Below are positions 1,959 through 47,588 of a stretch of 64,000 nucleotides of DNA, piece by piece. The notes under the pieces are model-generated. The model ran no database searches, was not told where the DNA came from, and saw only the letters and a program-made list of their open reading frames with translations. Position 1 is the first letter of the stretch, and each line of letters starts with the position of its first letter. Where the stretch lies: assembly GCA_903883945.1 (NCBI GenBank), contig CAISCV010000198.1, positions 5,235 through 69,234 of the forward strand, given 5' to 3'. The stretch is from an uncultured Chitinophagaceae bacterium. Lineage in GTDB: Bacteria; Bacteroidota; Bacteroidia; Chitinophagales; Chitinophagaceae. Made by a program: the position numbers and the translations under genes.

Positions 1959-2039
1959 ATCGGGGTCAGCAAAAATAGTCGGTAAACCCACTGTAGCCTA
2001 ATATACGTTTGATTGAAGGATACTTTAACTTTTTTAGAT

Positions 2040-2960
2040 ATGACAATAAACAAATTTTCAACCCTTTACCTGCTCTCTTTCTGTGCGCTTTTCCTAACTT
2101 CATTTTCTACCAAAGACAGTCAGTTTCAGAAGTCGAGGTTAAGAAAAATTGTGATAGATGCAGGACATGGGGGCAAAGACAGTGGTGCACCGGGCAAATA
2201 TTCTAATGAAAAGGACGTATCCCTTGCCATCTCTATCAAGCTGGAGGAGCTGATGCAAGCGCAAATACCCGACATTGAGGTTGTACTCACCCGTAGAACA
2301 GATATTTACCAACACCCTACCGAAAAAGCAAGAATTGCCAATCAGGCAAAAGGCGATTTGTTTGTGTGCATACATTGCAACAGTGCCGACCCATCTCGAC
2401 ATTCGTCTTTTGTGGGTTATAGAACAGAGACTTATCGTTCGCATGGTAAAAAACGTACCCGTCAGGTGAAGGAATATCATACAACTTCGGTCCCTAACCC
2501 TGCCAAAGGAACAGAAACCTACATTTGGGGAGCACATCGGAATGATTTAAAAGAAATAGCCATGCGTGAAAATCAGAGTTTATACTTGGATAGTAATGCA
2601 GCAAGTACCATTCAGGGATTTGATTCGCCCGAGAAGATGAATTTCATCAATTTAAAAACCCGTCAATATTTTGATAGGAGTGCTTATCTCGCCCTTACTA
2701 TACAAGAAGAATTTGCAAAGGCAGGTCGCATAGACAGGGATGCTTTGCAAAGACAAGTAGGTATTTGGGTGTTACAGGCGGTGGCAATGCCGGCTGTATT
2801 GGTGGAAACAGGCTACATCTCGAACCCCGAAGAGGAAGACTACCTAAACAGTCCTACCGGGCAAACAGAAATAGCACAGTCTATCGTAAACGCAATAAAA
2901 CGTTACCGTTCTTCCTTAGATAACAAAACAATAAGTGCCGATTTAAACGGTGGAAAATAA
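2040..2960 (+). CDS. N-acetylmuramoyl-L-alanine amidase (Amidase_3 family)
   Basis: It carries the motif IVIDAGHGGKDSGA plus VLVETGYISNPEEEDYL, which is typical of AmiA/B/C-type amidases. The ORF track starts at an alternative codon at 2013; the in-frame ATG at 2040 (MTINKFSTLYLLSF..., signal-like) is the more likely start. Confidence 0.85.
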   Translation: MTINKFSTLYLLSFCALFLTSFSTKDSQFQKSRLRKIVIDAGHGGKDSGAPGKYSNEKDVSLAISIKLEELMQAQIPDIEVVLTRRTDIYQHPTEKARIANQAKGDLFVCIHCNSADPSRHSSFVGYRTETYRSHGKKRTRQVKEYHTTSVPNPAKGTETYIWGAHRNDLKEIAMRENQSLYLDSNAASTIQGFDSPEKMNFINLKTRQYFDRSAYLALTIQEEFAKAGRIDRDALQRQVGIWVLQAVAMPAVLVETGYISNPEEEDYLNSPTGQTEIAQSIVNAIKRYRSSLDNKTISADLNGGK

Positions 2961-3139
2961 GCTGATGGTGATACGATAGGCATTGTTTGTGGAAGAAATA
3001 AGGGTTTCAGTAATTTAAGAATAATTCAAAAGGTAATAAAACGAGAAATATTACCTTATTTATTCCATTATTAATCTATTTGTTAGAATATAAAATACGG
3101 GGGATAAACTTAAAAATAGTCAATTGCCTATTAAATGTT

Positions 3140-3348
3140 GACAATTTGAAATCCTAAATGACCAATTTGAAATCCTAAATTAGTAATTTGAAATCCTAAA
3201 TTGGTAATTTGGAATCCTAAATTGGCAATTTGAAATCTTAAATTGGTAATTTGGAATCTTAAATTGGTAATTTGAAATCCTAAATTGGCAATTTGAAATC
3301 CTAAATTGGTAATTTGAGATCCTAAATTGGCAATTTGGAATCCTAAAT
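3140..3348. repeat. Tandem array of 10 x 21 bp (first unit 20 bp), consensus TGGYAATTTGRAATCYTAAAT
   Basis: Read directly from the sequence: unit boundaries at 3160, 3181, 3202, 3223, 3244, 3265, 3286, 3307 and 3328. The array ends 4 nt from the recX stop codon and lies in the convergent spacer between the amidase and recX. Confidence 0.95.
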
Positions 3349-3351
3349 TAA

Positions 3352-3840
3352 CTAGTAGGGCATAGTTCCTCTCCTGATATCCGCTATTGCAGAAGTAATC
3401 AGGTTCGGCTCAAACCCTTTCTGTAACAGATAAGTAGTCGTTTTGGCTTGTCTGTTCAGGTATTGCTCTCCTTGTAGGCTTTCCCATTTTTTTGCTGTAA
3501 GGCTTTTTAGTGTTTCCAGATAGGTCTCTTCTTCTATTTCTTTCATAGCTAGGGAAATGCAAAAGGTGCTTACCCCTTTTTGTTTTAGCTCATATTTAAT
3601 CTTCACCCGTCCCCATTGTTTCATCCTGAACTTTCCTCCTGCAAAAGCAACGGCAAATCGTTCTTCATTCAGATAATTCTCTTCTAAAAGCTGATAAATC
3701 AGTTGTTCTACCTCCTTTTTATACAATCCAAAGCTGTATAATTTCTCTGACACCTCTCTATGACTTCTTTCCTGATACGCACAAAATTGTTTTATTTTTT
3801 GAAATGCCTGATCGGGTGTAAAACTTTTTTTCGAATACAT
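3352..3840 (-). CDS. recX: RecX regulatory protein
   Basis: 162 aa. QKIKQFCAYQERSHREVSEKLYSFGL...EENYLNEERFAVAFAGGKFRMKQWGRVKIKYELKQKGVS matches the RecX three-helix repeat pattern. Confidence 0.85.
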   Translation of the reverse strand: MYSKKSFTPDQAFQKIKQFCAYQERSHREVSEKLYSFGLYKKEVEQLIYQLLEENYLNEERFAVAFAGGKFRMKQWGRVKIKYELKQKGVSTFCISLAMKEIEEETYLETLKSLTAKKWESLQGEQYLNRQAKTTTYLLQKGFEPNLITSAIADIRRGTMPY

Positions 3841-13241: not shown

Positions 13242-14474
13242 ATGCCACAAAAGCTTCTACAGTTTTTAATATTGTTTTTGTTAGGTACAACGATTGCAAA
13301 GTCTCAACCTGTAATAACAGCAGCAGGAGTTAATCCGCAGTTTGGCGACAACTCTTTTTATAACTATGTAATTTCAAGTATTTCAAACCCAGATGCAGGT
13401 GGCCCCCAAGCTAATTGGGATTATAGCAATCTCCCCCTCGTTTTATTTAGCGATACCATTCGTTTTACGTTAACTACTGGAATGCCTTATTCCAATATTT
13501 TTCCCTATTCTAATATAGTTGGAGTTAGCCTCAATAACACTTACTATCAATATCTCGAAACCAACAACGATAAAATTTCTATAAGCGGCATCTATTCTAA
13601 CTATAGTGGCAGCCCGATTACGGTTAGTTACACTCCTTCCCTTCCTTTAATGAAATTTCCTATGTTTTATGGCAAAACCTATACAGATACTATCCTAGAA
13701 ACAGATGACGCGGTATTGTATGATACCATTTTTTGTACCTCTAGTGTAGATGGATTTGGCACATTGAAGTTACCCAATGCCACCTATACCGATGTGCTTC
13801 GTTTGAAACAAACAGAAATGATTGCCCCCATAGATAGCCTTACTCCAATTAGTTTTAGCACCAAGTACCTGTTTATAAAAAATGGCATACATGGGCAACT
13901 CTTAGAATTAGACAGTACAGATGGGACTGGCTGGCAGGCAGGATACCTTTCTGATTTTATTCTACCCATAGAAATTACCTCTTTTAAAGCTACCTGGCAA
14001 AATAAAATGCCCTTCTTGCAATGGACAGCCCTTAATACCCAAAACACGCAAGCATTTAATGTGCAGCGTAGTGTTGATGGTATTAACTTTAGCACAATTG
14101 CTCAAGTAAATGCAAATGCAGGGGCTTCGTATAATTATCAGGATCCCAATGCTCCCAACAATACGGTATACTATCGGTTGCAACACATTGGTAAAGATGG
14201 ACAAACGTTTTACAGTACTACCGTACAGTTAACGGGAAGCAGTAAACAGTACGTTGTTTTCCCCAATCCGGCAAAAGAAGCGGTACAGGTAGCTATCCCT
14301 TCGGGAAATCCTGTACAATTGTATGTTTATAGTGAAGCAGGCAAATTAATCTACCATAATATAAACTATACAACCACTACTCTTATTGCTACATCTGCCT
14401 GGAGTAAAGGCAATTATGTACTAAGGATAAAAGACAGCGATGGTTGGAAAACAATTCAATTCGAAAAGCAGTAA
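13242..14474 (+). CDS. Secreted protein with a T9SS C-terminal sorting domain
   Basis: It has a signal peptide (MPQKLLQFLILFLLGTTIAKSQ) and a C-terminal segment (VVFPNPAKEAVQVAI...LYVYSEAGKLIY...GNYVLRIKDSDGWKTIQFEKQ) typical of a Por secretion tail. The N-terminal domain was not recognised. Confidence 0.75.
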   Translation: MPQKLLQFLILFLLGTTIAKSQPVITAAGVNPQFGDNSFYNYVISSISNPDAGGPQANWDYSNLPLVLFSDTIRFTLTTGMPYSNIFPYSNIVGVSLNNTYYQYLETNNDKISISGIYSNYSGSPITVSYTPSLPLMKFPMFYGKTYTDTILETDDAVLYDTIFCTSSVDGFGTLKLPNATYTDVLRLKQTEMIAPIDSLTPISFSTKYLFIKNGIHGQLLELDSTDGTGWQAGYLSDFILPIEITSFKATWQNKMPFLQWTALNTQNTQAFNVQRSVDGINFSTIAQVNANAGASYNYQDPNAPNNTVYYRLQHIGKDGQTFYSTTVQLTGSSKQYVVFPNPAKEAVQVAIPSGNPVQLYVYSEAGKLIYHNINYTTTTLIATSAWSKGNYVLRIKDSDGWKTIQFEKQ

Positions 14475-14827
14475 AAAAAGTGTGAATTGGGTGACTAAAA
14501 CTAAAAGAGCTTAAAACAATTAGAATTCTTTGCAAATTCATTCATTGGATATTAACACGAGAATTAAAAATTGCCAGGGTCTGGTATTTTGGGAAGCATG
14601 CTATTTTACATAACCGACAATTATTGATTTATTCGCAGCATTGTGCAAAAGGTTATGATTGTTACCGAAAATGCTTTAGCTATTATTGCATCAGAATGTT
14701 TGAGTTATGAAAATGATTGCTCCTTATTCTTCTATTTATAAATACTTGCTAGATCTTCTTTTGCTAGCATCTTCTATCCATACTCCTCCATGACTTTATG
14801 AACTAATAGGTTAGAAAATTCCGTTTT

Positions 14828-15082
14828 ATGGGGTTTTCGCCCAAAATGATGTCTGATACATCCGTGTTTATGTCTGATACACGCCTGTTTATATCCGATA
14901 CATCCGTGTTCATGTATGATACACGTGTGTTTATGTTCGATACAAGCGTGTTCATGTATGATACGGCTGTGTTTATATCCGATACATACTTGTATATGTC
15001 TGATACGGCCGTGTTCTTATCTGATACAAGCGTGTTTATATCTGATACATCAAAGATTTTATTTGCAAATAATCATTTTTAA
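14828..15082 (+). CDS. Candidate small ORF composed of ten heptad repeats (S-D-T-x-V-F-M/I); coding status unproven
   Basis: 84-aa ORF with ATG at 14828. The 21-bp repeat is in frame. Differences between units are often third-position and synonymous (TTT/TTC, ACA/ACG, GCT/GCC) or conservative (V/L, M/I). It ends 15 nt before the downstream gene. A purely DNA-level repeat is equally possible. Confidence 0.35.
   Translation: MGFSPKMMSDTSVFMSDTRLFISDTSVFMYDTRVFMFDTSVFMYDTAVFISDTYLYMSDTAVFLSDTSVFISDTSKILFANNHF
14852..15051 (+). repeat. Tandem array of ~9.5 x 21 bp, consensus TCTGATACANNNGTGTTYATR
   Basis: Read directly. The GATAC core is invariant, GTGTT is nearly invariant, and 4-5 nt between them are hypervariable. 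Confidence 0.95.
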
Positions 15083-15099
15083 TTAAAAAAACATTTAGT

Positions 15100-16008
15100 A
15101 TGAACACTCGTCAAAACGTTGAGTATTCAGTTTTTCAACAAGTATTGTTATTCTTGGCAGCTTATACCAGCGCATTTGCTGGCAACACACAGTTGCTTGA
15201 TGCCATCGGGAACTTCAAAGGATTTGTGACTGCTATCGACAACGTCTCTAGCAAGAAACAACCAAAGGCTAGTAAGCCTAAAACAAAAATGAAAACCGAC
15301 ACAAGGAAAAGTGTGGTGAGTAAGATAGAAGCTGCATGCTTGTTGGGATTGGAATGGGCAAAGTCAACGAAAAATGAGCAATTGATAAAGGATTTTACCA
15401 TTACCGATAGTAGTTTTAGGGGTAAAATAAATGCGATGCTGATATTAGCAAATTACACTTATGGCGTGCTGAACACTAATAAAGTTGCCCTTATTGCTGC
15501 GACATCTATTACAGCGGCACAGCTAACAGCTATTAACACAGAGATAGCCTTATTGCAAACTTTACAGAAAGCACCTGCTGCGGCGCGTAGCGCTCAAAAG
15601 ACTATTACTGCCCTGTATAAACCAGCATTTTTAGATGCAACTGCTGGAAAGGAAACACTGATAAACCTAATAAGGGGGGCATATACAATTGGCCCCAATG
15701 CAAATCTGCAACTGGTGACTGACCTTGATAATGCACTTATATTTGGTGGTAATGTGCAGCATACCATTTTGAAAGTTACTTTCTTGACTGCTGGAACAAC
15801 TGTTCGGATGGAGGGTGCAATGTTAACGATAACAGAACTGATGCGAGTTGGGGTGAGTAATATAATGGGGGTCGGGCAGATAGCGGAGTTTAAGCCAGGA
15901 ATATATCATGTGACATTCTCGGCATTGGATCATATTTCTCAAACACAAATAATTACTATTGGTGCGGGTGAAAAATTGACTATGACAGTGGAATTGGTGG
16001 GGGCATAG
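15100..16008 (+). CDS. Hypothetical protein (helical N-terminal part, C-terminal beta-sandwich-like domain, no signal peptide); distant paralog of 45633-46667
   Basis: 302 aa. The C-terminus HTILKVTFLTAGTTVRMEGAMLTITELMRVGVSNIMGVGQIAEFKPGIYHVTFSAL...KLTMTVELV aligns by eye with HTPVVITITDANTGVALAGVKGTMLATKELPMSNVSGIMEYATVKDGATTGTFEKVGYI...NSFTVSLV of the other copy. ITAAQLTA also matches LTAPQLTG. Confidence 0.7.
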   Translation: MNTRQNVEYSVFQQVLLFLAAYTSAFAGNTQLLDAIGNFKGFVTAIDNVSSKKQPKASKPKTKMKTDTRKSVVSKIEAACLLGLEWAKSTKNEQLIKDFTITDSSFRGKINAMLILANYTYGVLNTNKVALIAATSITAAQLTAINTEIALLQTLQKAPAAARSAQKTITALYKPAFLDATAGKETLINLIRGAYTIGPNANLQLVTDLDNALIFGGNVQHTILKVTFLTAGTTVRMEGAMLTITELMRVGVSNIMGVGQIAEFKPGIYHVTFSALDHISQTQIITIGAGEKLTMTVELVGA

Positions 16009-16312
16009 GAAGTTATAAGTTGTAAGTCATAAGTTTAAGTTAAGCAAAGAGGTTAAAAGTTGGAGGTTGTGAGACTGAAGACTTTTGACCTTTTTGGAAT
16101 GTTTCGTAATTTACTCGGGTGTAGCTTTTAGTTAAATTGACGTGGACTTGTTTAGGGAGGACATTCTTTGAAATGACGCGTAAAAGGTTTTAGTTAGTTA
16201 AAATAAGAGTTGATTATTGTCTTTTTTGGGGATGATAACAGCCTTGAAAGGGGAATTGAAAGAAGGTGTAGTAGCCTAAATATTTAATTGATGGATAGTT
16301 TTGAGAATATAT

Positions 16313-22615: not shown

Positions 22616-22747
22616 AATGACGTGAACTTGTAGAGACGGATGATCATTCGTCTTATTTGCGAAGCAAATTAATCAATTGAATAATCAATTTAAGACGGAT
22701 GATCATCCGTCTCTACAGCTAATGGGATGCAAACATTCCACGTCATT
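22616..22747. repeat. REPIN-like composite: two inverted copies of a palindromic GTAGAGACGGATGATCAYCCGTCT(CTAC) element inside an outer inverted repeat
   Basis: Element copies lie at 22630-22653 and 22693-22716. The outer arms are AATGACGTG (22616-22624) and CACGTCATT (22739-22747). AGACGGATGATCATCCGTCT is itself a perfect palindrome. Confidence 0.7.
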
Positions 22748-22926: not shown

Positions 22927-23412
22927 AATGAATGGACGGTGTACCAAAATGAACGATCGGTACACACATTGCCCGACGACGGTGCACAAAAATGAATCGC
23001 CGGTGTACCACACATGGATGGACGGTGCATAAAAATGAATCGATGGTGCACCATACATGGATGGACGGTGTACCAAAATGAACCATCGGTACACACATTG
23101 CCCGACGACGGTGTAACAAAATGAATCAACGGTGTACCTTACATGGATGGTCGGTGTACCAAAATGAACCATCGGTACACACCTTGCCCGACGACGGTGT
23201 GCAAAAATGAATCGACGGTGCACCATACATGGATGATCGGTGTACCAAAATGAACCATCGGTACACACCTTGCCCGACGACGGTGTAACAAAATGAATCA
23301 ACGGTGCACCATACATGGATGGTCGGTACACCATACATGTATTGTCGGTGTACCAAAATGAACCATCGGTACTCACCTTGCCCAACGACGATGTAACAAA
23401 ATGAATCAACGG
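22927..23412. repeat. Tandem array of ~22 sub-units of 21-22 bp, organised as an ~86-bp super-unit (CGGTGTACCAAAATGAACCAT / CGGTACACACCTTGCCCGACGA / CGGTGTAACAAAATGAATCAA / CGGTGCACCATACATGGATGGT)
   Basis: CGGTGTACCAAAATGAAC recurs at 22937, 23066, 23152, 23238 and 23346, giving spacings of 129, 86, 86 and 108. GGTGTACC and GGTACACC in adjacent sub-units are reverse complements, so they can form hairpins. Confidence 0.9.
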
Positions 23413-23542: not shown

Positions 23543-23965
23543 TTGTGCGTTATGAAAAAGGTACTTTATATCGGGTTAATTGCTGGTGCAATACTTTTTG
23601 TTGTGAGCTATGGTGGATTATTTTTAGCTGTTAAATACTTACCCCAACTATTTATAGATGCTTATGCAAACAATCCACTCATAAACTCAGATGGTATAAA
23701 AGATATCCTTTTTTTCTCACACGCTTTTATTCTAAGCCTTGCTTTATCGTGGTTTTGGGAACGTTTTAAAAGCTTACTAAAAGGAAATTTCATGTTGCGT
23801 GCATTAGAATTTGGTGTGGTGTATGCTGTTGTTGGCTTACTGCCCATCATGTGGATTACTTATAGCGCAATGGATGTAACCTTTACAATGGTTTTTAGTT
23901 GGCTGTTGTATGGATTATTTCAGGCTACAGTGGCTGGTATTGTGTTTGCAAAACTAAACCCGTAA
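23543..23965 (+). CDS. Hypothetical integral membrane protein (about 4 TM helices)
   Basis: 140-aa ORF with four hydrophobic stretches. No family was recognised. Confidence 0.55.
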   Translation: MCVMKKVLYIGLIAGAILFVVSYGGLFLAVKYLPQLFIDAYANNPLINSDGIKDILFFSHAFILSLALSWFWERFKSLLKGNFMLRALEFGVVYAVVGLLPIMWITYSAMDVTFTMVFSWLLYGLFQATVAGIVFAKLNP

Positions 23966-37284: not shown

Positions 37285-38049
37285 CTATTCTCCTGTTATA
37301 ACAATTGAATTTTTCTCATTTAAGGCACCCAGATAGAAGTTAATTAAAGGCTTCACGTAGTATTTATACAATACATCTTTTTTTGGGGTACCCCTATCTT
37401 CAAGTTCTTCTTTTACTTCTGCCGATGTATTGTCATACAGTTTCATAAAACCTACTTCAGTGTCTATTTTATTTTGCTTAATCCACTTTACAATTTCAAC
37501 TACATCTGAACTGGGTAAAAATCCACTAATATTCCTGTTTGAAACACCTTCCTCAATCGGATTACCAAATATCATTTTATATGGAATGGAGTTATCCAAA
37601 CCATCTACATCTGTAGTGTCATTTAATAATATATATAAGTCTTTTGTCATTAAACGAAGGTCTACACTTGTAGCATTTGCTTTGTGTAACTCCTGTTTCA
37701 AACTTGTTATTTCTTGTAGCTTTTCAGCATTCTTTATACGGTAAAGTGTTTTAAAATTGCTTTTAAAGGTTGTTCCTTTCCATGCACCGGATTGTTTTGA
37801 TTTATTAATAATGGGAGACGAGAAGGCGGTAATTGTTAGAAGTACAATCAACAAAAATGTGTTTATAACGGCACGCATCGTCACAAACATTACGGCTTTA
37901 CCACTACCAAGCGTTATACCTTGCTTTAGATAATTGTTTATTAAACAAACGCAGGTGTTAATACTTCTTATTGTAGGTACACTCCTTTCTATTCTATTAT
38001 TTTCCATTGACATAACTCTAAATTTAAAAATTGTTGTTTTGTAAGCCAT
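37285..38049 (-). CDS. Hypothetical protein, possibly secreted or anchored (weak resemblance to DUF1877/YfbM-type C-terminus)
   Basis: 254-aa ORF. The internal Met at 37878 gives a signal-like MRAVINTFLLIVLLTITAFSS. The family call rests only on a remembered pattern (...YYVKPLINFYLGALNEKNSIVITGE). Confidence 0.45.
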   Translation of the reverse strand: MAYKTTIFKFRVMSMENNRIERSVPTIRSINTCVCLINNYLKQGITLGSGKAVMFVTMRAVINTFLLIVLLTITAFSSPIINKSKQSGAWKGTTFKSNFKTLYRIKNAEKLQEITSLKQELHKANATSVDLRLMTKDLYILLNDTTDVDGLDNSIPYKMIFGNPIEEGVSNRNISGFLPSSDVVEIVKWIKQNKIDTEVGFMKLYDNTSAEVKEELEDRGTPKKDVLYKYYVKPLINFYLGALNEKNSIVITGE

Positions 38050-38330: not shown

Positions 38331-38560
38331 TTTTCAGACGGTCTGAACAGTTGTTTAAACCGTCTGATTTTTTTTAGACGTTCTCGAAGACCATTTAGAA
38401 CGTCTAGATTTATTTTAGACGTCCTCGAAGTTCATTTAGACGGTCTGAATTTATTTTAGACGCTCTCAAAATTCATTTAGAGCGTCTGGATTTATTTTTA
38501 ACGTCCTCGAAGACCATTTAGAGCGTCTAAATATATTTTAGACGTTCTCGTGGCTTATTT
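38331..38560. repeat. Array of ~10 sub-units with ~20.5-bp phase (TTTAGACGNYCTCGAAGNYCA alternating with TTTAGASCGTCTRRATTTAT) that form 5-6 consecutive hairpins
   Basis: The TAGACG / TAGAGCG core recurs at 38375, 38416, 38437, 38457, 38478, 38499, 38519 and 38539. One example of pairing is TAGACGTTCT...AGAACGTCTA. Confidence 0.85.
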
Positions 38561-38690
38561 AAACTGTATGGATATAGTTTGAATCTTCTGTGAATGTTTG
38601 TAAACAGTTCAAACAAATAGAAATCTATTCTTTTTCTGTATTGGGCACTGTTTTCTAGATCAATCCTATTTTTTGATTTTTTACAATCAA

Positions 38691-45013: not shown

Positions 45014-45546
45014 TTACTTAATAAAAGTCTTATAGATAGGTCTTTCATAAGTAGTCGTATGTGTTATTGATTTTATCCTCTCCTTTTCTAAATACTTTTG
45101 AATAATGTTGTCCATGAATTTTTGCAAATCCTCAAGTTTTGTAAATGCCTTGTTGGTAATTTTTCTTTTCAGGAAAGCCCATACTTTTTCCGCTGGATTA
45201 AGTTCAGGACTGTATACAATGATGCTATATTATTGGGTATTACCAGTCTTGTTGCCTTATGAAAAGCACCTTTATCGAGGAATGATATTTTGTATTCATC
45301 GGGTTGCTATTTGGACAATTCATTCAAGAAAACTTCGAAACATTCCGTATTGCAGTAAGGCATATCCAACAATAGGCTACTGCCCGTTATGGGAGAAAAT
45401 GCGCCAAACAGATAAGTATTCTTAAAGTCTTGTACAAAAGGACAATCTGGCTTAACTCCCTTGAGTGTAATGGATTTACCGTTGCGTGAAAACAATCCAA
45501 ACTTACTGAACTGCGTTCGTAACCTTCGCATAAAGCTCCGCATCAT
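45014..45546 (-). pseudogene. IS630-family DDE transposase remnant (C-terminal half only, with an in-frame stop and a frameshift)
   Basis: Minus-strand translation gives ...YLFGAFSPITGSSLLLDMPYCNTECFEVFLNELSK*QPDEYKISFLDKGAFHKATRLVIPNNI. After a frame change it continues YSPELNPAEKVWAFLKRKITNKAF...IK*. The N-terminal HTH half is missing. Confidence 0.75.
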
Positions 45547-45632
45547 ACTTGTTTATCTTAAAAGTACACGTAGAAACTTTAGAAGTTTTACTTGTGTTTG
45601 GTTACAATGGCCTCAAGCGTGGTGTCTAACAA

Positions 45633-46667
45633 CTAAAAACTAACAACCACTTCCTTTACCAAAGCAGCTATTTTAGCAGCCTTTCTCAAATCTGCCTTAG
45701 CCTGTTTGTCCGCAATTAGTTGAGCAATAGTGGCATTTATTGCTTTTTCTTGGGCTTCCGTCATTATACCAGGAACAAGTGAAACTGTAAAACTATTCAT
45801 TTTGCCCCGCACAATGCCCATAGCCATTATCTTGGTAATATAACCCACCTTCTCAAAAGTGCCAGTTGTTGCCCCATCTTTTACAGTGGCATATTCCATA
45901 ATGCCAGACACGTTACTCATAGGCAATTCCTTCGTAGCTAGCATGGTACCCTTTACGCCAGCAAGTGCAACTCCTGTGTTTGCGTCGGTAATAGTAATTA
46001 CAACTGGCGTATGTCTCACAGTAATGTCAGGAAGTTTACATGCCTTCATCAGTCCATTATAAAATGCGGGATGCGGAATTTTATAATCTTTTACCAAACT
46101 TTTGAGATCGGCAATATCGGCAGTAGTAAGCCGCATAGCGGTATCGAAAGCTTTGGTAAGCACAGGGTTGTTTGTGTTTACCAAAACAGCAGACCCCTTC
46201 ATTGCTTTAAAACCATTTATCTTAGCCAAAAAACCAGTTAACTGTGGAGCAGTTAAATAGTCGGCAGTTATCAATAGCAGGTTATCATTCATTACATCAT
46301 ACACATTCATTAATCTGTTCGCACACTGTACGTCTGCTGCTATCGAATAAAAAGTAAATGTACCATTGAGTGCATCAGCTAATGTATGATTGCCAAGCAT
46401 ATCGAGCTTTACCCTACTCCTTGAACACAAATTTGCAGCTACTTCACACACTTCCTGCTTTTTAATTAATTTATCTAAACTATAACCCGAATTGTCTGCC
46501 GCAGCTTTATCACCCGCAAGCACTGCCGCCAAACAATCTGCTTCTGTTTTAGTGGCACAGGCACTAAAAGCTATATCGGCATTATAAATAGCCAAATTGG
46601 ATGGAAGCGTTAAAAAAGCACAAACGCCTAAATTTCTTGTTCCTTGTGCTACTTGAATATTATTCAT
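45633..46667 (-). CDS. Hypothetical protein (helical N-terminal part, C-terminal beta-sandwich-like domain, no signal peptide); distant paralog of 15100-16008
   Basis: 344 aa. See the alignment noted for 15100-16008. It has an extra C-terminal helical tail (TEAQEKAINATIAQLIADKQAKADLRKAAKIAALVKE). Confidence 0.7.
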   Translation of the reverse strand: MNNIQVAQGTRNLGVCAFLTLPSNLAIYNADIAFSACATKTEADCLAAVLAGDKAAADNSGYSLDKLIKKQEVCEVAANLCSRSRVKLDMLGNHTLADALNGTFTFYSIAADVQCANRLMNVYDVMNDNLLLITADYLTAPQLTGFLAKINGFKAMKGSAVLVNTNNPVLTKAFDTAMRLTTADIADLKSLVKDYKIPHPAFYNGLMKACKLPDITVRHTPVVITITDANTGVALAGVKGTMLATKELPMSNVSGIMEYATVKDGATTGTFEKVGYITKIMAMGIVRGKMNSFTVSLVPGIMTEAQEKAINATIAQLIADKQAKADLRKAAKIAALVKEVVVSF

Positions 46668-47039
46668 GTTGAGTAAATTTATTTGTAAAAAAAATGAATA
46701 GAAGTGGCTAGTTGTTAGTTGTTAGTAAAGAAGGATTGAGGATGAAAGAAAAGATAAGGTTTGACAGCAAAAAGCTTTAATGCACTCAAATAATCAAACC
46801 GTAAAACCTGAAACGGAAAACTTAGAATTTTTGCTTAACCCCTGAAAATTCAAAACTTAAGATTCAAAATTTACCATTTCTTTCTTTTGCTAAAACGCTG
46901 GGAAAATTAGCTGTAGAGACATGCGTAATGGTTCTTTTCGTATCAGATTGGAATGGTAATTATAACAAGCGAAAGTTTTAGGTAGCCGAACCAAGGGCGT
47001 ATCCAAAATTTCAGAATACCAAAGGTATCGCATATTGTT

Positions 47040-47372
47040 TCATTTAAAAATCATTAATTTAAAATATACAAAAATAAAGTTTTTGCAATCACCCGTATAG
47101 ACGCAAAGTATTACTTCTTGGGCGGAACGTCTCGTTTTTTTTACCCTTGCCTTGATTACAGATTTGACAACTTCTAAAAAGTTGTCAAATCCTATCAAAG
47201 TATCGGATAGTGCTATCAAAGTATCGGATAGTGCTATCAAAGTGTGGGATAGTGCTATCAAAGTATCGGATAGTGCTATCAAAGTATCGGATAGTGCTAT
47301 CAAAGTGTGGAATATCGCTATCTCGGATAGTGCTATCAAAGTATGAGGAATCGCTATCTCTTCCATATACAT
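47040..47372 (-). CDS. Candidate ORF containing heptad repeats (S-D/H-T-L-I-A-L); coding status unproven
   Basis: 110-aa ORF. The 21-bp array is in frame and on the same strand as the downstream paralog. The units are nearly identical, so there is no substitution pattern with which to test for coding. Confidence 0.25.
   Translation of the reverse strand: MYMEEIAIPHTLIALSEIAIFHTLIALSDTLIALSDTLIALSHTLIALSDTLIALSDTLIGFDNFLEVVKSVIKARVKKTRRSAQEVILCVYTGDCKNFIFVYFKLMIFK
47163..47189. repeat. Perfect palindrome TTTGACAACTT-ctaaa-AAGTTGTCAAA flanking the 21-bp array
   Basis: Read directly. The arms are 11 bp with a 5-nt spacer, and it ends 1 nt before the first array unit. It is operator-like, but no function has been demonstrated. 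Confidence 0.6.
47191..47362 (-). repeat. Tandem array of ~8 x 21 bp; gene-sense unit TCCGATACTTTGATAGCACTA (+ strand TATCGGATAGTGCTATCAAAG)
   Basis: Read directly. Two units carry GTGTGG instead of GTATCG, and the last two units are degenerate. Confidence 0.95.
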
Positions 47373-47588
47373 TAATTTGATTTTTTTAATTGCTACTAGG
47401 ACAGCCTTTGCGTTCTTAACTTTAAAATATCATTCAATTGCAATAAAGGTTCATTCAACATAAATTCGGAATCATATAGATTTGGTTAGTTCGATTATAT
47501 GGGTGCATTATTAATATTCATGACTTACATCATTTACTACTCATTACAAAAGTTTGAATACGTTTAAGTTGTTTAATAGTATAATTTA

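Follow-up and report, generated by a model that had tools for sequence, protein, structure and literature searches.

Private 21-bp tandem arrays upstream of an unannotated two-domain protein superfamily in Bacteroidota

Two genes in a 64,000-nt stretch of DNA from an uncultured Chitinophagaceae bacterium (contig CAISCV010000198.1 of assembly GCA_903883945.1, positions 5,235 to 69,234 of the forward strand; hereafter the window) encode distantly related proteins, and each is preceded by a tandem array of 21-bp units. Comparison with related loci shows that such arrays are associated with the genes of one protein superfamily, distant members included, and that the period, copy number and position of the arrays are conserved without conservation of the unit sequence. 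Judged from the limits of homology between loci, array and gene are also co-mobile. The main parts of the two cassettes, module B and module A, are as follows.

45633 to 46667, minus strand: gene B, 344 aa (open reading frame list, 16 homologs, AlphaFold model)
47192 to 47360, minus strand: module B 21-bp tandem array, ~8 units (Tandem Repeats Finder, TRF, and repeat search)
15100 to 16008, plus strand: gene A, 302 aa, a distant paralog of gene B
14849 to 15058, plus strand: module A 21-bp array, 10 units (TRF, unit table, entropy)

Association of the arrays with one gene superfamily

The related loci derive from metagenome-assembled genomes (MAGs) of freshwater Chitinophagaceae, and the clusters of close homologs number 16 for gene B and 31 for gene A (families B and A, respectively). 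An earlier reading of the window, made from its sequence alone, had proposed that array and gene are coupled, and this coupling recurs in the relatives: an upstream array is found at 19 of 24 family genes, compared with 7 of 106 other genes (Fisher p 7e-13), and three of those seven are family arrays counted from a divergent neighbour. When arrays of the 21-bp type alone are counted, the figures are 12 of 24 and 4 of 106 (p 1e-7). The test covers the upstream intergenic regions of the same metagenomic loci and the window, with open reading frames (ORFs) as gene proxies.

Within family A the arrangement is strict: an array of exactly 21-bp period and ~200 bp in length ends 35–97 nt before the start codon (window, L025/L030, L010, L006–9, L012, L031 and L032), and L033 and L035 carry decayed arrays. 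The family-A exception is an 82% ortholog (L026–29) with a divergent gene ~75 nt upstream, where all contigs break; by eye, the start of this divergent gene looks like that of an IS256-type transposase. Family B is more varied, with 21-bp arrays in the window, L013, L005, L021 and L022, arrays of 7, 14, 28 or 35 bp in L002–4, L017, L019, L020 and L023, and two weaker cases, namely short heptamer runs alone in L016 and a 53-bp duplication in L018. The distant members of the superfamily (L036, L037/38, L039–41 and L042), whose clusters are ~15–20% identical to gene A, return to the 21-bp period; all four examined carry ~10–11 units ending 36–174 nt before the ATG. In L039 and L042 the 21-bp array is the sole tandem repeat in ~6 kb, and the L042 genome is GC-richer.

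The proposal that array and gene travel as a unit is borne out by blastn homology, which is confined to the cassette edges. Between the window and L013, an 89% ortholog of gene B, homology runs from position 47358, the distal array edge, to 45629, at the stop codon, and the flanks are unrelated; with L001 it runs from 47049 to 45632. The 3' limit shared with L013, L014 and L001 falls at 45629–45632, and a heptamer repeat covers the gene B stop codon at this edge (see below). Similarly, module A and its 93–94% orthologs in L025/L030 are homologous from 14681 to 16095 only, between unrelated flanks. The homology block holds the family gene only, plus a short ORF in family A, and the neighbours vary by locus. 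Directly downstream of gene B, a 79-aa ORF (45307–45546, minus strand) without a Pfam match resembles by eye what we take to be an IS630-type transposase fragment, which fits a cassette lying in a rearranged region.

These observations bear on the possibility of neutral arrays, which a genome prone to slippage would generate and which would be kept upstream of these genes by descent and by hitch-hiking with a mobile cassette. The window does contain five ~21-bp arrays in 64 kb, three of them by unrelated genes, heptamer repeats stand at many gene ends, and some family genes have no array. Neutral accumulation does not readily account for the enrichment at family genes given above, nor for the same place, period and copy number in 15–20% identical members, including one in a GC-richer genome without other nearby repeats, nor for the retention of core positions in the decayed L035 array. 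We regard this explanation as distinctly improbable.

Array geometry and the anatomy of the two modules

A period of exactly 21 and a copy number of 9–13 recur in at least 12 unrelated unit sequences. Each array is built from a contiguous conserved core of 12–16 bp and a contiguous variable block of 3–6 nt. The units themselves are unrelated between lineages, even for orthologs 72–77% identical in protein, and also between paralogs of one MAG (L030/L038 in CANGFK01, L031/L034 in JANYEU01 and L033/L035 in CANCPA01) and between modules A and B of the window. In L035 the array is decayed, yet TGATACA-like cores persist at 21-bp spacing. No consistent intrinsic curvature is predicted by a wedge model with Bolshoy parameters, a weak test in which seven arrays are straighter than most column-shuffled controls.

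Copy number differs between close relatives. Between ~90% orthologs the count shifts by one or a few units and the variable blocks change as well, with 10 units in module A and 11 in L025/L030, and ~8 in module B and 13.8 in L013. Such differences, together with the variation of a downstream heptamer array between 15.3 and 9.3 copies among L002–L004 and the richness of these genomes in 7n-bp repeats, would suit arrays that act as tuning knobs (variable-number tandem repeats, VNTRs, or contingency loci), in which slippage alters spacing or leader length and no specific binding partner is needed. Several features speak for a more constrained element. Copy number is held at ~9–13 in independent lineages; four samples of a single population share an identical 10-unit array, at 99% identity, as would not be expected of a hypermutable switch; family-A arrays are degenerate (66–80% unit identity), which suppresses slippage; and the pattern of core plus variable spacer is unexpected for a pure length device. 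A tuning function is, in our estimate, improbable.

The module B array lies upstream of gene B on the minus strand, as the earlier reading had described. TRF reports a period of 21, with 5.5 copies at 95% match, at 47192–47306, degenerate units extend the array to 47344/47360 for a total of ~8 units, and an independent repeat search returns the same 21-nt register. The sense unit is TCCGATACTTTGATAGCACTA, and a palindrome, GATAGCACTATC, occurs inside every unit. The orthologous array of L013 has a homologous unit, ATACATTGATAGCGATTCCTC, and lies at the same distance from its gene. Adjoining and downstream features are listed here.

47161 to 47191, either strand: inverted repeat adjoining the array, with perfect 13-nt arms GATTTGACAACTT / AAGTTGTCAAATC and a 5-nt loop
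46871 to 47049, minus strand: conserved ~175-nt non-coding block of family B (nhmmer, alignment)
46709 to 46726, minus strand: short heptamer repeat of TAAC type, sense CTAACAA x2.6, 42 nt upstream of the gene B start codon (TRF)
45626 to 45647, minus strand: heptamer repeat over the gene B stop codon (TRF)

The inverted repeat had been noticed as a palindrome with 11-bp arms; it exists, and its arms (47161–47173 and 47179–47191, 100% complementary in the repeat search) measure 13 nt. L013 keeps it with one mismatch.

Module B had been described as repeating the architecture of module A. Both indeed combine an array with a paralogous gene, but the position of the array relative to the gene differs: the module B array lies 524 nt upstream of the gene B start, beyond a promoter-like block, whereas the module A array ends 41 nt before the ATG. 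Module B is a positional variant of module A and no exact copy. Nor do the two share a core of the form YCNGATAC, translated as S-D-T, as had been supposed. GATAC is part of the invariant core of module A units (TGATACA, plus a 5-nt variable block), unlike in module B, where just 4 of the ~8 units contain it, at a position that varies between units (GATAC / CACAC / TCATAC). The family-A arrays of L006, L012, L031 and L032 are without GATAC, and the units of the distant members and of the other family-B homologs are unrelated, so that GATAC is no family-wide core. Three GATACs on the minus strand (46940, 46999 and 47025) do lie between the array and gene B, where the earlier chance estimate of ~0.4 agrees with our recomputed ~0.44 in 372 nt of one strand (from ~151 GATACs in the window on both strands, the two arrays excluded). 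All three sit inside the conserved family-B block, and in the alignment the homologs there read ATACC or GATAGG, or are unconserved.

The family-B block is found by nhmmer upstream of the gene at ten loci (L001, L002–4, L013, L014, L016–L020 and L023). The Bacteroidetes -7 promoter consensus is TAnnTTTG, and the block holds an exact match to it, TACCTTTG (47027–47020), with AATGATTTTTAAATGAAA ahead of it. It also holds an invariant small hairpin, GCTAA-N13-TTAGC; RNAalifold gives a weak structure for the block as a whole (-4.7 kcal/mol), and the region 46600–47500 has no Rfam match at gathering thresholds, the sole sub-threshold match being a chance snoRNA. The block is a putative promoter plus leader. 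At most family-B loci, the block is separated from the ATG by 7n-bp repeats, including TAAC-type heptamer arrays longer than that of the window at the corresponding position; in the window and L013 the 21-bp array is instead upstream of the block, so that the module B array and its 13-nt-arm palindrome stand ~165–330 bp upstream of the -7 box. Genes A and B both terminate in heptamer repeats.

The further parts of module A are the following.

14707 to 14793, plus strand: short ORF (sORF) of 28 aa, MKMIAPYSSIYKYLLDLLLLASSIHTPP, then a TGA stop
16010 to 16095, plus strand: 3' end of cassette A, with an AAGTTAT heptamer repeat (16010–16042) and a terminator-like hairpin (16046–16095) (TRF, blastn)

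The module A array is degenerate (70% matches and 0% indels by TRF), and the variable blocks of L025/L030 differ from those of the window. The sORF, of 26–28 aa, is kept in eight family-A lineages ~55 nt upstream of the array, with a C-terminal end SSIHxPP-TGA (SSIHTPP-TGA in the window); it was not found in L012, L035, family B or the distant members. Between the window and L006, substitutions by codon position number 4/2/11, and 10 codons differ synonymously only, compared with 3 that differ non-synonymously. Because of this synonymous bias, the sORF is very likely translated. Pro-Pro-stop is a known ribosome-pausing context, and the sORF, with its Pro-Pro-TGA end, may be a leader or arrest peptide.

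At the other end of cassette A, the terminator-like hairpin reads GGTTAAAAGT...ACTTTTGACC followed by TTTTT, and the 50-nt hairpin block recurs by blastn at 90–92% identity in L006 (5011–5060 and 5505–5550) and L032 (6340–6389). The genes of these loci are themselves just ~72% identical, and in L006 the hairpin follows two different genes; it looks like a dispersed terminator element resembling repetitive extragenic palindromes (REP-like). We note further that the class of family-A array (TGATACA or AAGATTA..TTGCT) follows the first ten codons of the gene (MNTRQNxEYS or xxxxQNEKYS) and not the whole-protein tree, which suggests that the 5' module recombines between cassettes. We rejected this correspondence as evidence for co-evolution of array and protein; linkage and recombination are the simplest explanation.

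By the stops and substitution patterns within them, the arrays are non-coding. The 110-aa ORF through the module B array (47040–47372, minus strand), whose end lies 372 nt before the ATG at 46667, is present as first described. It is one of three overlapping ORFs that cross the repeat on both strands (the others being 47152–47346 and 47210–47380, plus strand), and for this reason it is probably an artefact of the repeat. Heptad-repeat micro-proteins (such as MSDTSVF or SDTLIAL) co-expressed with the downstream protein could be read from open frames across both window arrays, of 78 aa in module A (with an ATGATG start and an end 18 nt before the gene) and 110 aa in module B, and from open frames in L010, L012, L039 and L042, some of them annotated by gene callers. 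However, a 21-nt unit is stop-free in a given frame ~70% of the time by chance, and the frames do not behave as genes. The homologous frame of L006–L009 has a TAA stop that is retained in four samples, L031 has four stops and reads MSL* in the frame of the conserved ATG, in L032 the frame ends after 26 codons, and no frame is open on the gene strand of L037. No motif is common to the lineages; the within-array variation has no 3-nt periodicity, codon-position entropy in the window A array (4.2/3.5/4.6) shows no third-position excess, and almost every difference between it and its 93% ortholog changes the amino acid in that frame. The co-expressed repeat peptide proposed earlier is thus rejected, and we consider any coding function very improbable indeed.

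The main rival to a role as DNA is that the arrays act as RNA, within a long transcribed 5' leader, where they would either be bound by an RNA-binding protein (the family protein, S1 or a Csp-like one) or serve as an attenuation platform. The target would be translation or transcript elongation, and the family-A version would be coupled to the Pro-Pro-stop leader peptide, with its pausing context. No consistent -7 motif (TAnnTTTG) lies between array and ATG, which agrees with an array that is transcribed. For heptamer repeats, translational regulation has been proposed (MacGregor 2015, PMC4679880). On the other hand, the exact 21-nt period is left unexplained by RNA and is explained by two turns of DNA, and the module B array lies upstream of the promoter-like block. 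The predicted RNA structure of the arrays, with z-scores of -2.1 to +1.9 relative to column-permuted arrays, is neither unusually strong nor unusually weak, there is no conserved hairpin or consensus structure between sORF and array, the arrays have no Rfam match, and the units lack the C-over-G bias of Rho loading sites. Across the whole window, no known RNA family is found at Rfam gathering thresholds. An RNA function of the arrays strikes us as unlikely.

The proteins, their neighbourhood and other repeats of the window

That genes A and B are paralogous, first judged by eye, is confirmed by BLASTP (26% identity over 183 aa, E 1e-7) and by formal alignment of the family profiles (hhalign probability 93.9%, E 1.6e-7, 220 columns); families A and B also align co-linearly end to end. 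The gene B product consists of an N-terminal all-helical domain, a CarboxypepD_reg/transthyretin-like beta-sandwich and a C-terminal K/A-rich helix. A combined A+B profile, searched against 1.84 billion representative proteins, gives 2889 matches at E<=1e-3, of which 622 reach E<=1e-10. Over 100 of the top 150 are full-length proteins of ~300 aa, and the superfamily is therefore large; it comprises hundreds of 50%-identity clusters. Its members bear no protein names in the source databases, and the N-terminal ~215 residues fall outside every Pfam, PHROG, PADLOC and NCBIfam family. A phage origin found no support: a search of IMG/VR with the family-A profile gave no relatives.

In the AlphaFold (AF2) models, whose predicted local distance difference test (pLDDT) scores are 78 for gene B and, from a deep alignment, 93.4 for gene A, a bundle of long helices precedes a sandwich of seven strands. 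Both Foldseek, run against PDB and BFVD, and a profile search of the PDB sequences find matches for the sandwich alone; those of Foldseek are transthyretin-like domains of carboxypeptidases D/N (E 6e-5 to 3e-4). PF13620 (CarboxypepD_reg) stays below threshold in gene A and reaches or exceeds it in superfamily members. The proteins appear to have no convincing signal peptide, the hydrophobic N-terminus being conserved in sequence and modelled as a helix.

The genes that flank the family loci differ from one locus to the next and are often toxin, restriction or other island-type genes. At three of the four distant loci (L036, L039 and L042), a very large secreted adhesin-like gene lies downstream of the family gene on the same strand, encoding 1012–2980 aa with Por_Secre_tail or CHU_C domains and PKD/Big_2 repeats, and in the window a Por_Secre_tail protein (13242–14474) precedes module A. 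This neighbourhood may reflect a functional link or chance.

Further repeats in the window adjoin other genes. A 21-bp x10 array (TTGGCAATTTGAAATCCTAAA) occupies 3138–3349, between the 3' ends of the convergent genes 2013–2960 (plus strand) and recX (3352–3840, minus strand), and is upstream of no gene. At 22935–23412 there is an array of ~480 bp whose 43-bp super-unit consists of GGTGTACC / GGTACACC cores in alternating orientation; 130 nt downstream of it lies a gene for a 140-aa membrane protein (23543–23965), which by hhalign is unrelated to the family. A third, at 38354–38580, has a 41-bp super-unit with palindromic TAGACnGTCTA cores and lies 305 nt upstream of 37285–38049 (minus strand), whose 254-aa product has no Pfam match and is likewise unrelated. 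We considered these array-adjacent genes as possible family members and rejected them (hhalign probability 0.2%). A long inverted repeat (GTAGAGACGGATGATCAT... / ...ATGATCATCCGTCTCTAC) is found in the intergenic region at ~22631–22718, upstream of a SusC-like gene.

Proposed mechanism and known systems

We tentatively favour, at somewhat less than an even chance, a reading in which the units are phased sites on one face of the DNA, bound by a partner borne on the cassette, possibly the family protein. Module B is one representative of a conserved Bacteroidota cassette, in which a private tandem array in the 5' control region accompanies a presumably cytoplasmic protein of two domains. A 21-bp unit corresponds to two turns of B-DNA, which would place ~ten identical sites on one helix face, where a sequence-specific partner travelling with the cassette could bind cooperatively, head to tail. 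The most economical binder would be the family protein, as the sole candidate encoded in the cassette. Binding would set the expression of the downstream gene, with the array as an iteron-like operator or roadblock, and the specificity would drift and then be re-homogenised within each lineage. We propose this model because of the two-turn period, the division into core and spacer, the ~ten copies, the private sequences and the co-mobility; the action of the array as DNA, its binding by a protein and the choice of the family protein for this role are steps that we infer from these features. Of the two forms of functional coupling that had been envisaged, a regulator-binding iteron array and a co-expressed repeat peptide, the first fits better and the second falls away.

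A bolder version, which we regard as rather doubtful, would make the superfamily a new kind of sequence-specific nucleic-acid-binding protein that polymerises on a private array of ~ten phased 21-bp sites. Protein and array would form a self-contained mobile 'protein plus iteron' cassette with rapidly co-evolving specificity, unrelated to Rep, Par and the known repressor folds.

Several points weigh against phased binding sites. No helix-turn-helix (HTH), ribbon-helix-helix (RHH) or winged-helix domain is detected in the family protein, and the helical domain has no match in the PDB, even from the model with pLDDT 93. Palindromy of the core is a feature of some arrays only. No array precedes certain family genes (L001, L014 and L026), and three further ~21-bp arrays in the window adjoin unrelated genes, from which it follows that the lineage readily produces such arrays in general. 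The loci behind the association test are phylogenetically non-independent, its control 'genes' are ORF proxies, and short-read assemblies may collapse near-identical units. Two observations favour the RNA leader instead, namely the very probably translated family-A sORF on the gene strand upstream of the array in eight lineages and the eight family-B loci with 7n-bp repeats between the promoter-like block and the ATG. The tuning-knob, neutral and coding explanations are each less likely than phased DNA sites or an RNA leader.

If the coupling is functional, the cis element would be recognisable by its geometry (21 bp, ~ten copies, just upstream) and not by its sequence, and it would offer many natural protein–site pairs of diverged specificity within single genomes for studies of recognition co-evolution, as well as, possibly, a set of orthogonal parts for gene regulation in Bacteroidota. 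A widespread, unannotated family of ~300-aa proteins, whose N-terminal fold has no solved relative, would become approachable for the first time, and the finding is relevant to the still unexplained intergenic 7n-bp repeats of Bacteroidetes, Cyanobacteria and Beggiatoaceae. The literature searched describes neither this layout nor a 21-bp array linked to the family, and the nearest work concerns heptamer repeats.

Intergenic heptamer direct repeats (the cyanobacterial short tandemly repeated repetitive sequences, STRR; TAACTGA in Beggiatoaceae, Cyanobacteria and some Bacteroidetes) have been proposed to act in post-transcriptional control (PMC4679880), and translational regulation was suggested for those just 5' of start codons, Bacteroidetes included (MacGregor 2015, PMC4679880). 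Many family-B loci resemble them in having forward TAAC-type heptamers tens of nt before the start (46709–46726 in the window) and heptamers after stops. In modules A and B the 21-bp unit does not break down into three similar heptamers (e.g. CTATCAA/AGTATCG/GATAGTG); true heptamer repeats are limited to 46709–46726, 45626–45647 and 16010–16042, plus the 7-, 14- and 28-bp arrays of other family-B loci. Moreover, the published heptamers have no downstream-gene pattern (PMC4679880), whereas the 21-bp arrays are tied to one protein superfamily.

The family-A sORF is comparable to regulatory leader peptides that have proline at the C-terminus (TnaC and other arrest peptides): it is short and conserved, has an invariant Pro-Pro-stop end and is followed by a ~300-nt spacer before the structural gene, but it has no sequence similarity to them and is restricted to family A. 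Contingency VNTRs (the 7-bp repeats of H. influenzae hmw and AGAT of M. catarrhalis uspA2) likewise occupy the stretch from the control region to the start codon of a non-essential gene and vary in copy number between strains, whereas the units here are long, degenerate, near ten in number and stable in a population. Clustered regularly interspaced short palindromic repeats (CRISPR) have unique spacers of ~26–40 nt; here the units are contiguous and the variable block is 3–6 nt.

Plasmid and phage systems provide further parallels, namely centromere or operator arrays and iterons, which the proposed phased sites would resemble in their mode of action. The arrays bound by proteins of the ParR, ParG and omega type (R1 parC, pSK41 and the heptad iterons of pSM19035) are also tandem short repeats upstream of an operon, and the known ones serve as cooperative platform and autoregulatory operator. 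They differ from the present arrays in that here there is no ParA/ParM, no RHH protein and no plasmid, and the unit is 21 bp compared with 7–12 or 20 bp. Iterons and their Rep proteins (R6K, RK2, P1 and F) differ in fold and setting: the cassette protein is without the winged-helix Rep fold and any Pfam or NCBIfam Rep match, the cassette has a single gene and is chromosomal (the window holds dnaN, recX, SusC/D and a glycogen debranching enzyme), and neither an AT-rich unwinding element nor DnaA boxes were noted, with nothing indicating replication. In layout the two are alike. Iterons comprise 5–10 direct repeats with a ~17-bp core and a ~5-bp spacer at a 21–23-bp pitch, they stand beside the gene of their cognate protein, and their private specificity diverges fast between relatives; against their repeats of ~17–22 bp at about two-turn spacing, the arrays described here have a period of exactly 21 bp and 8–13 units.

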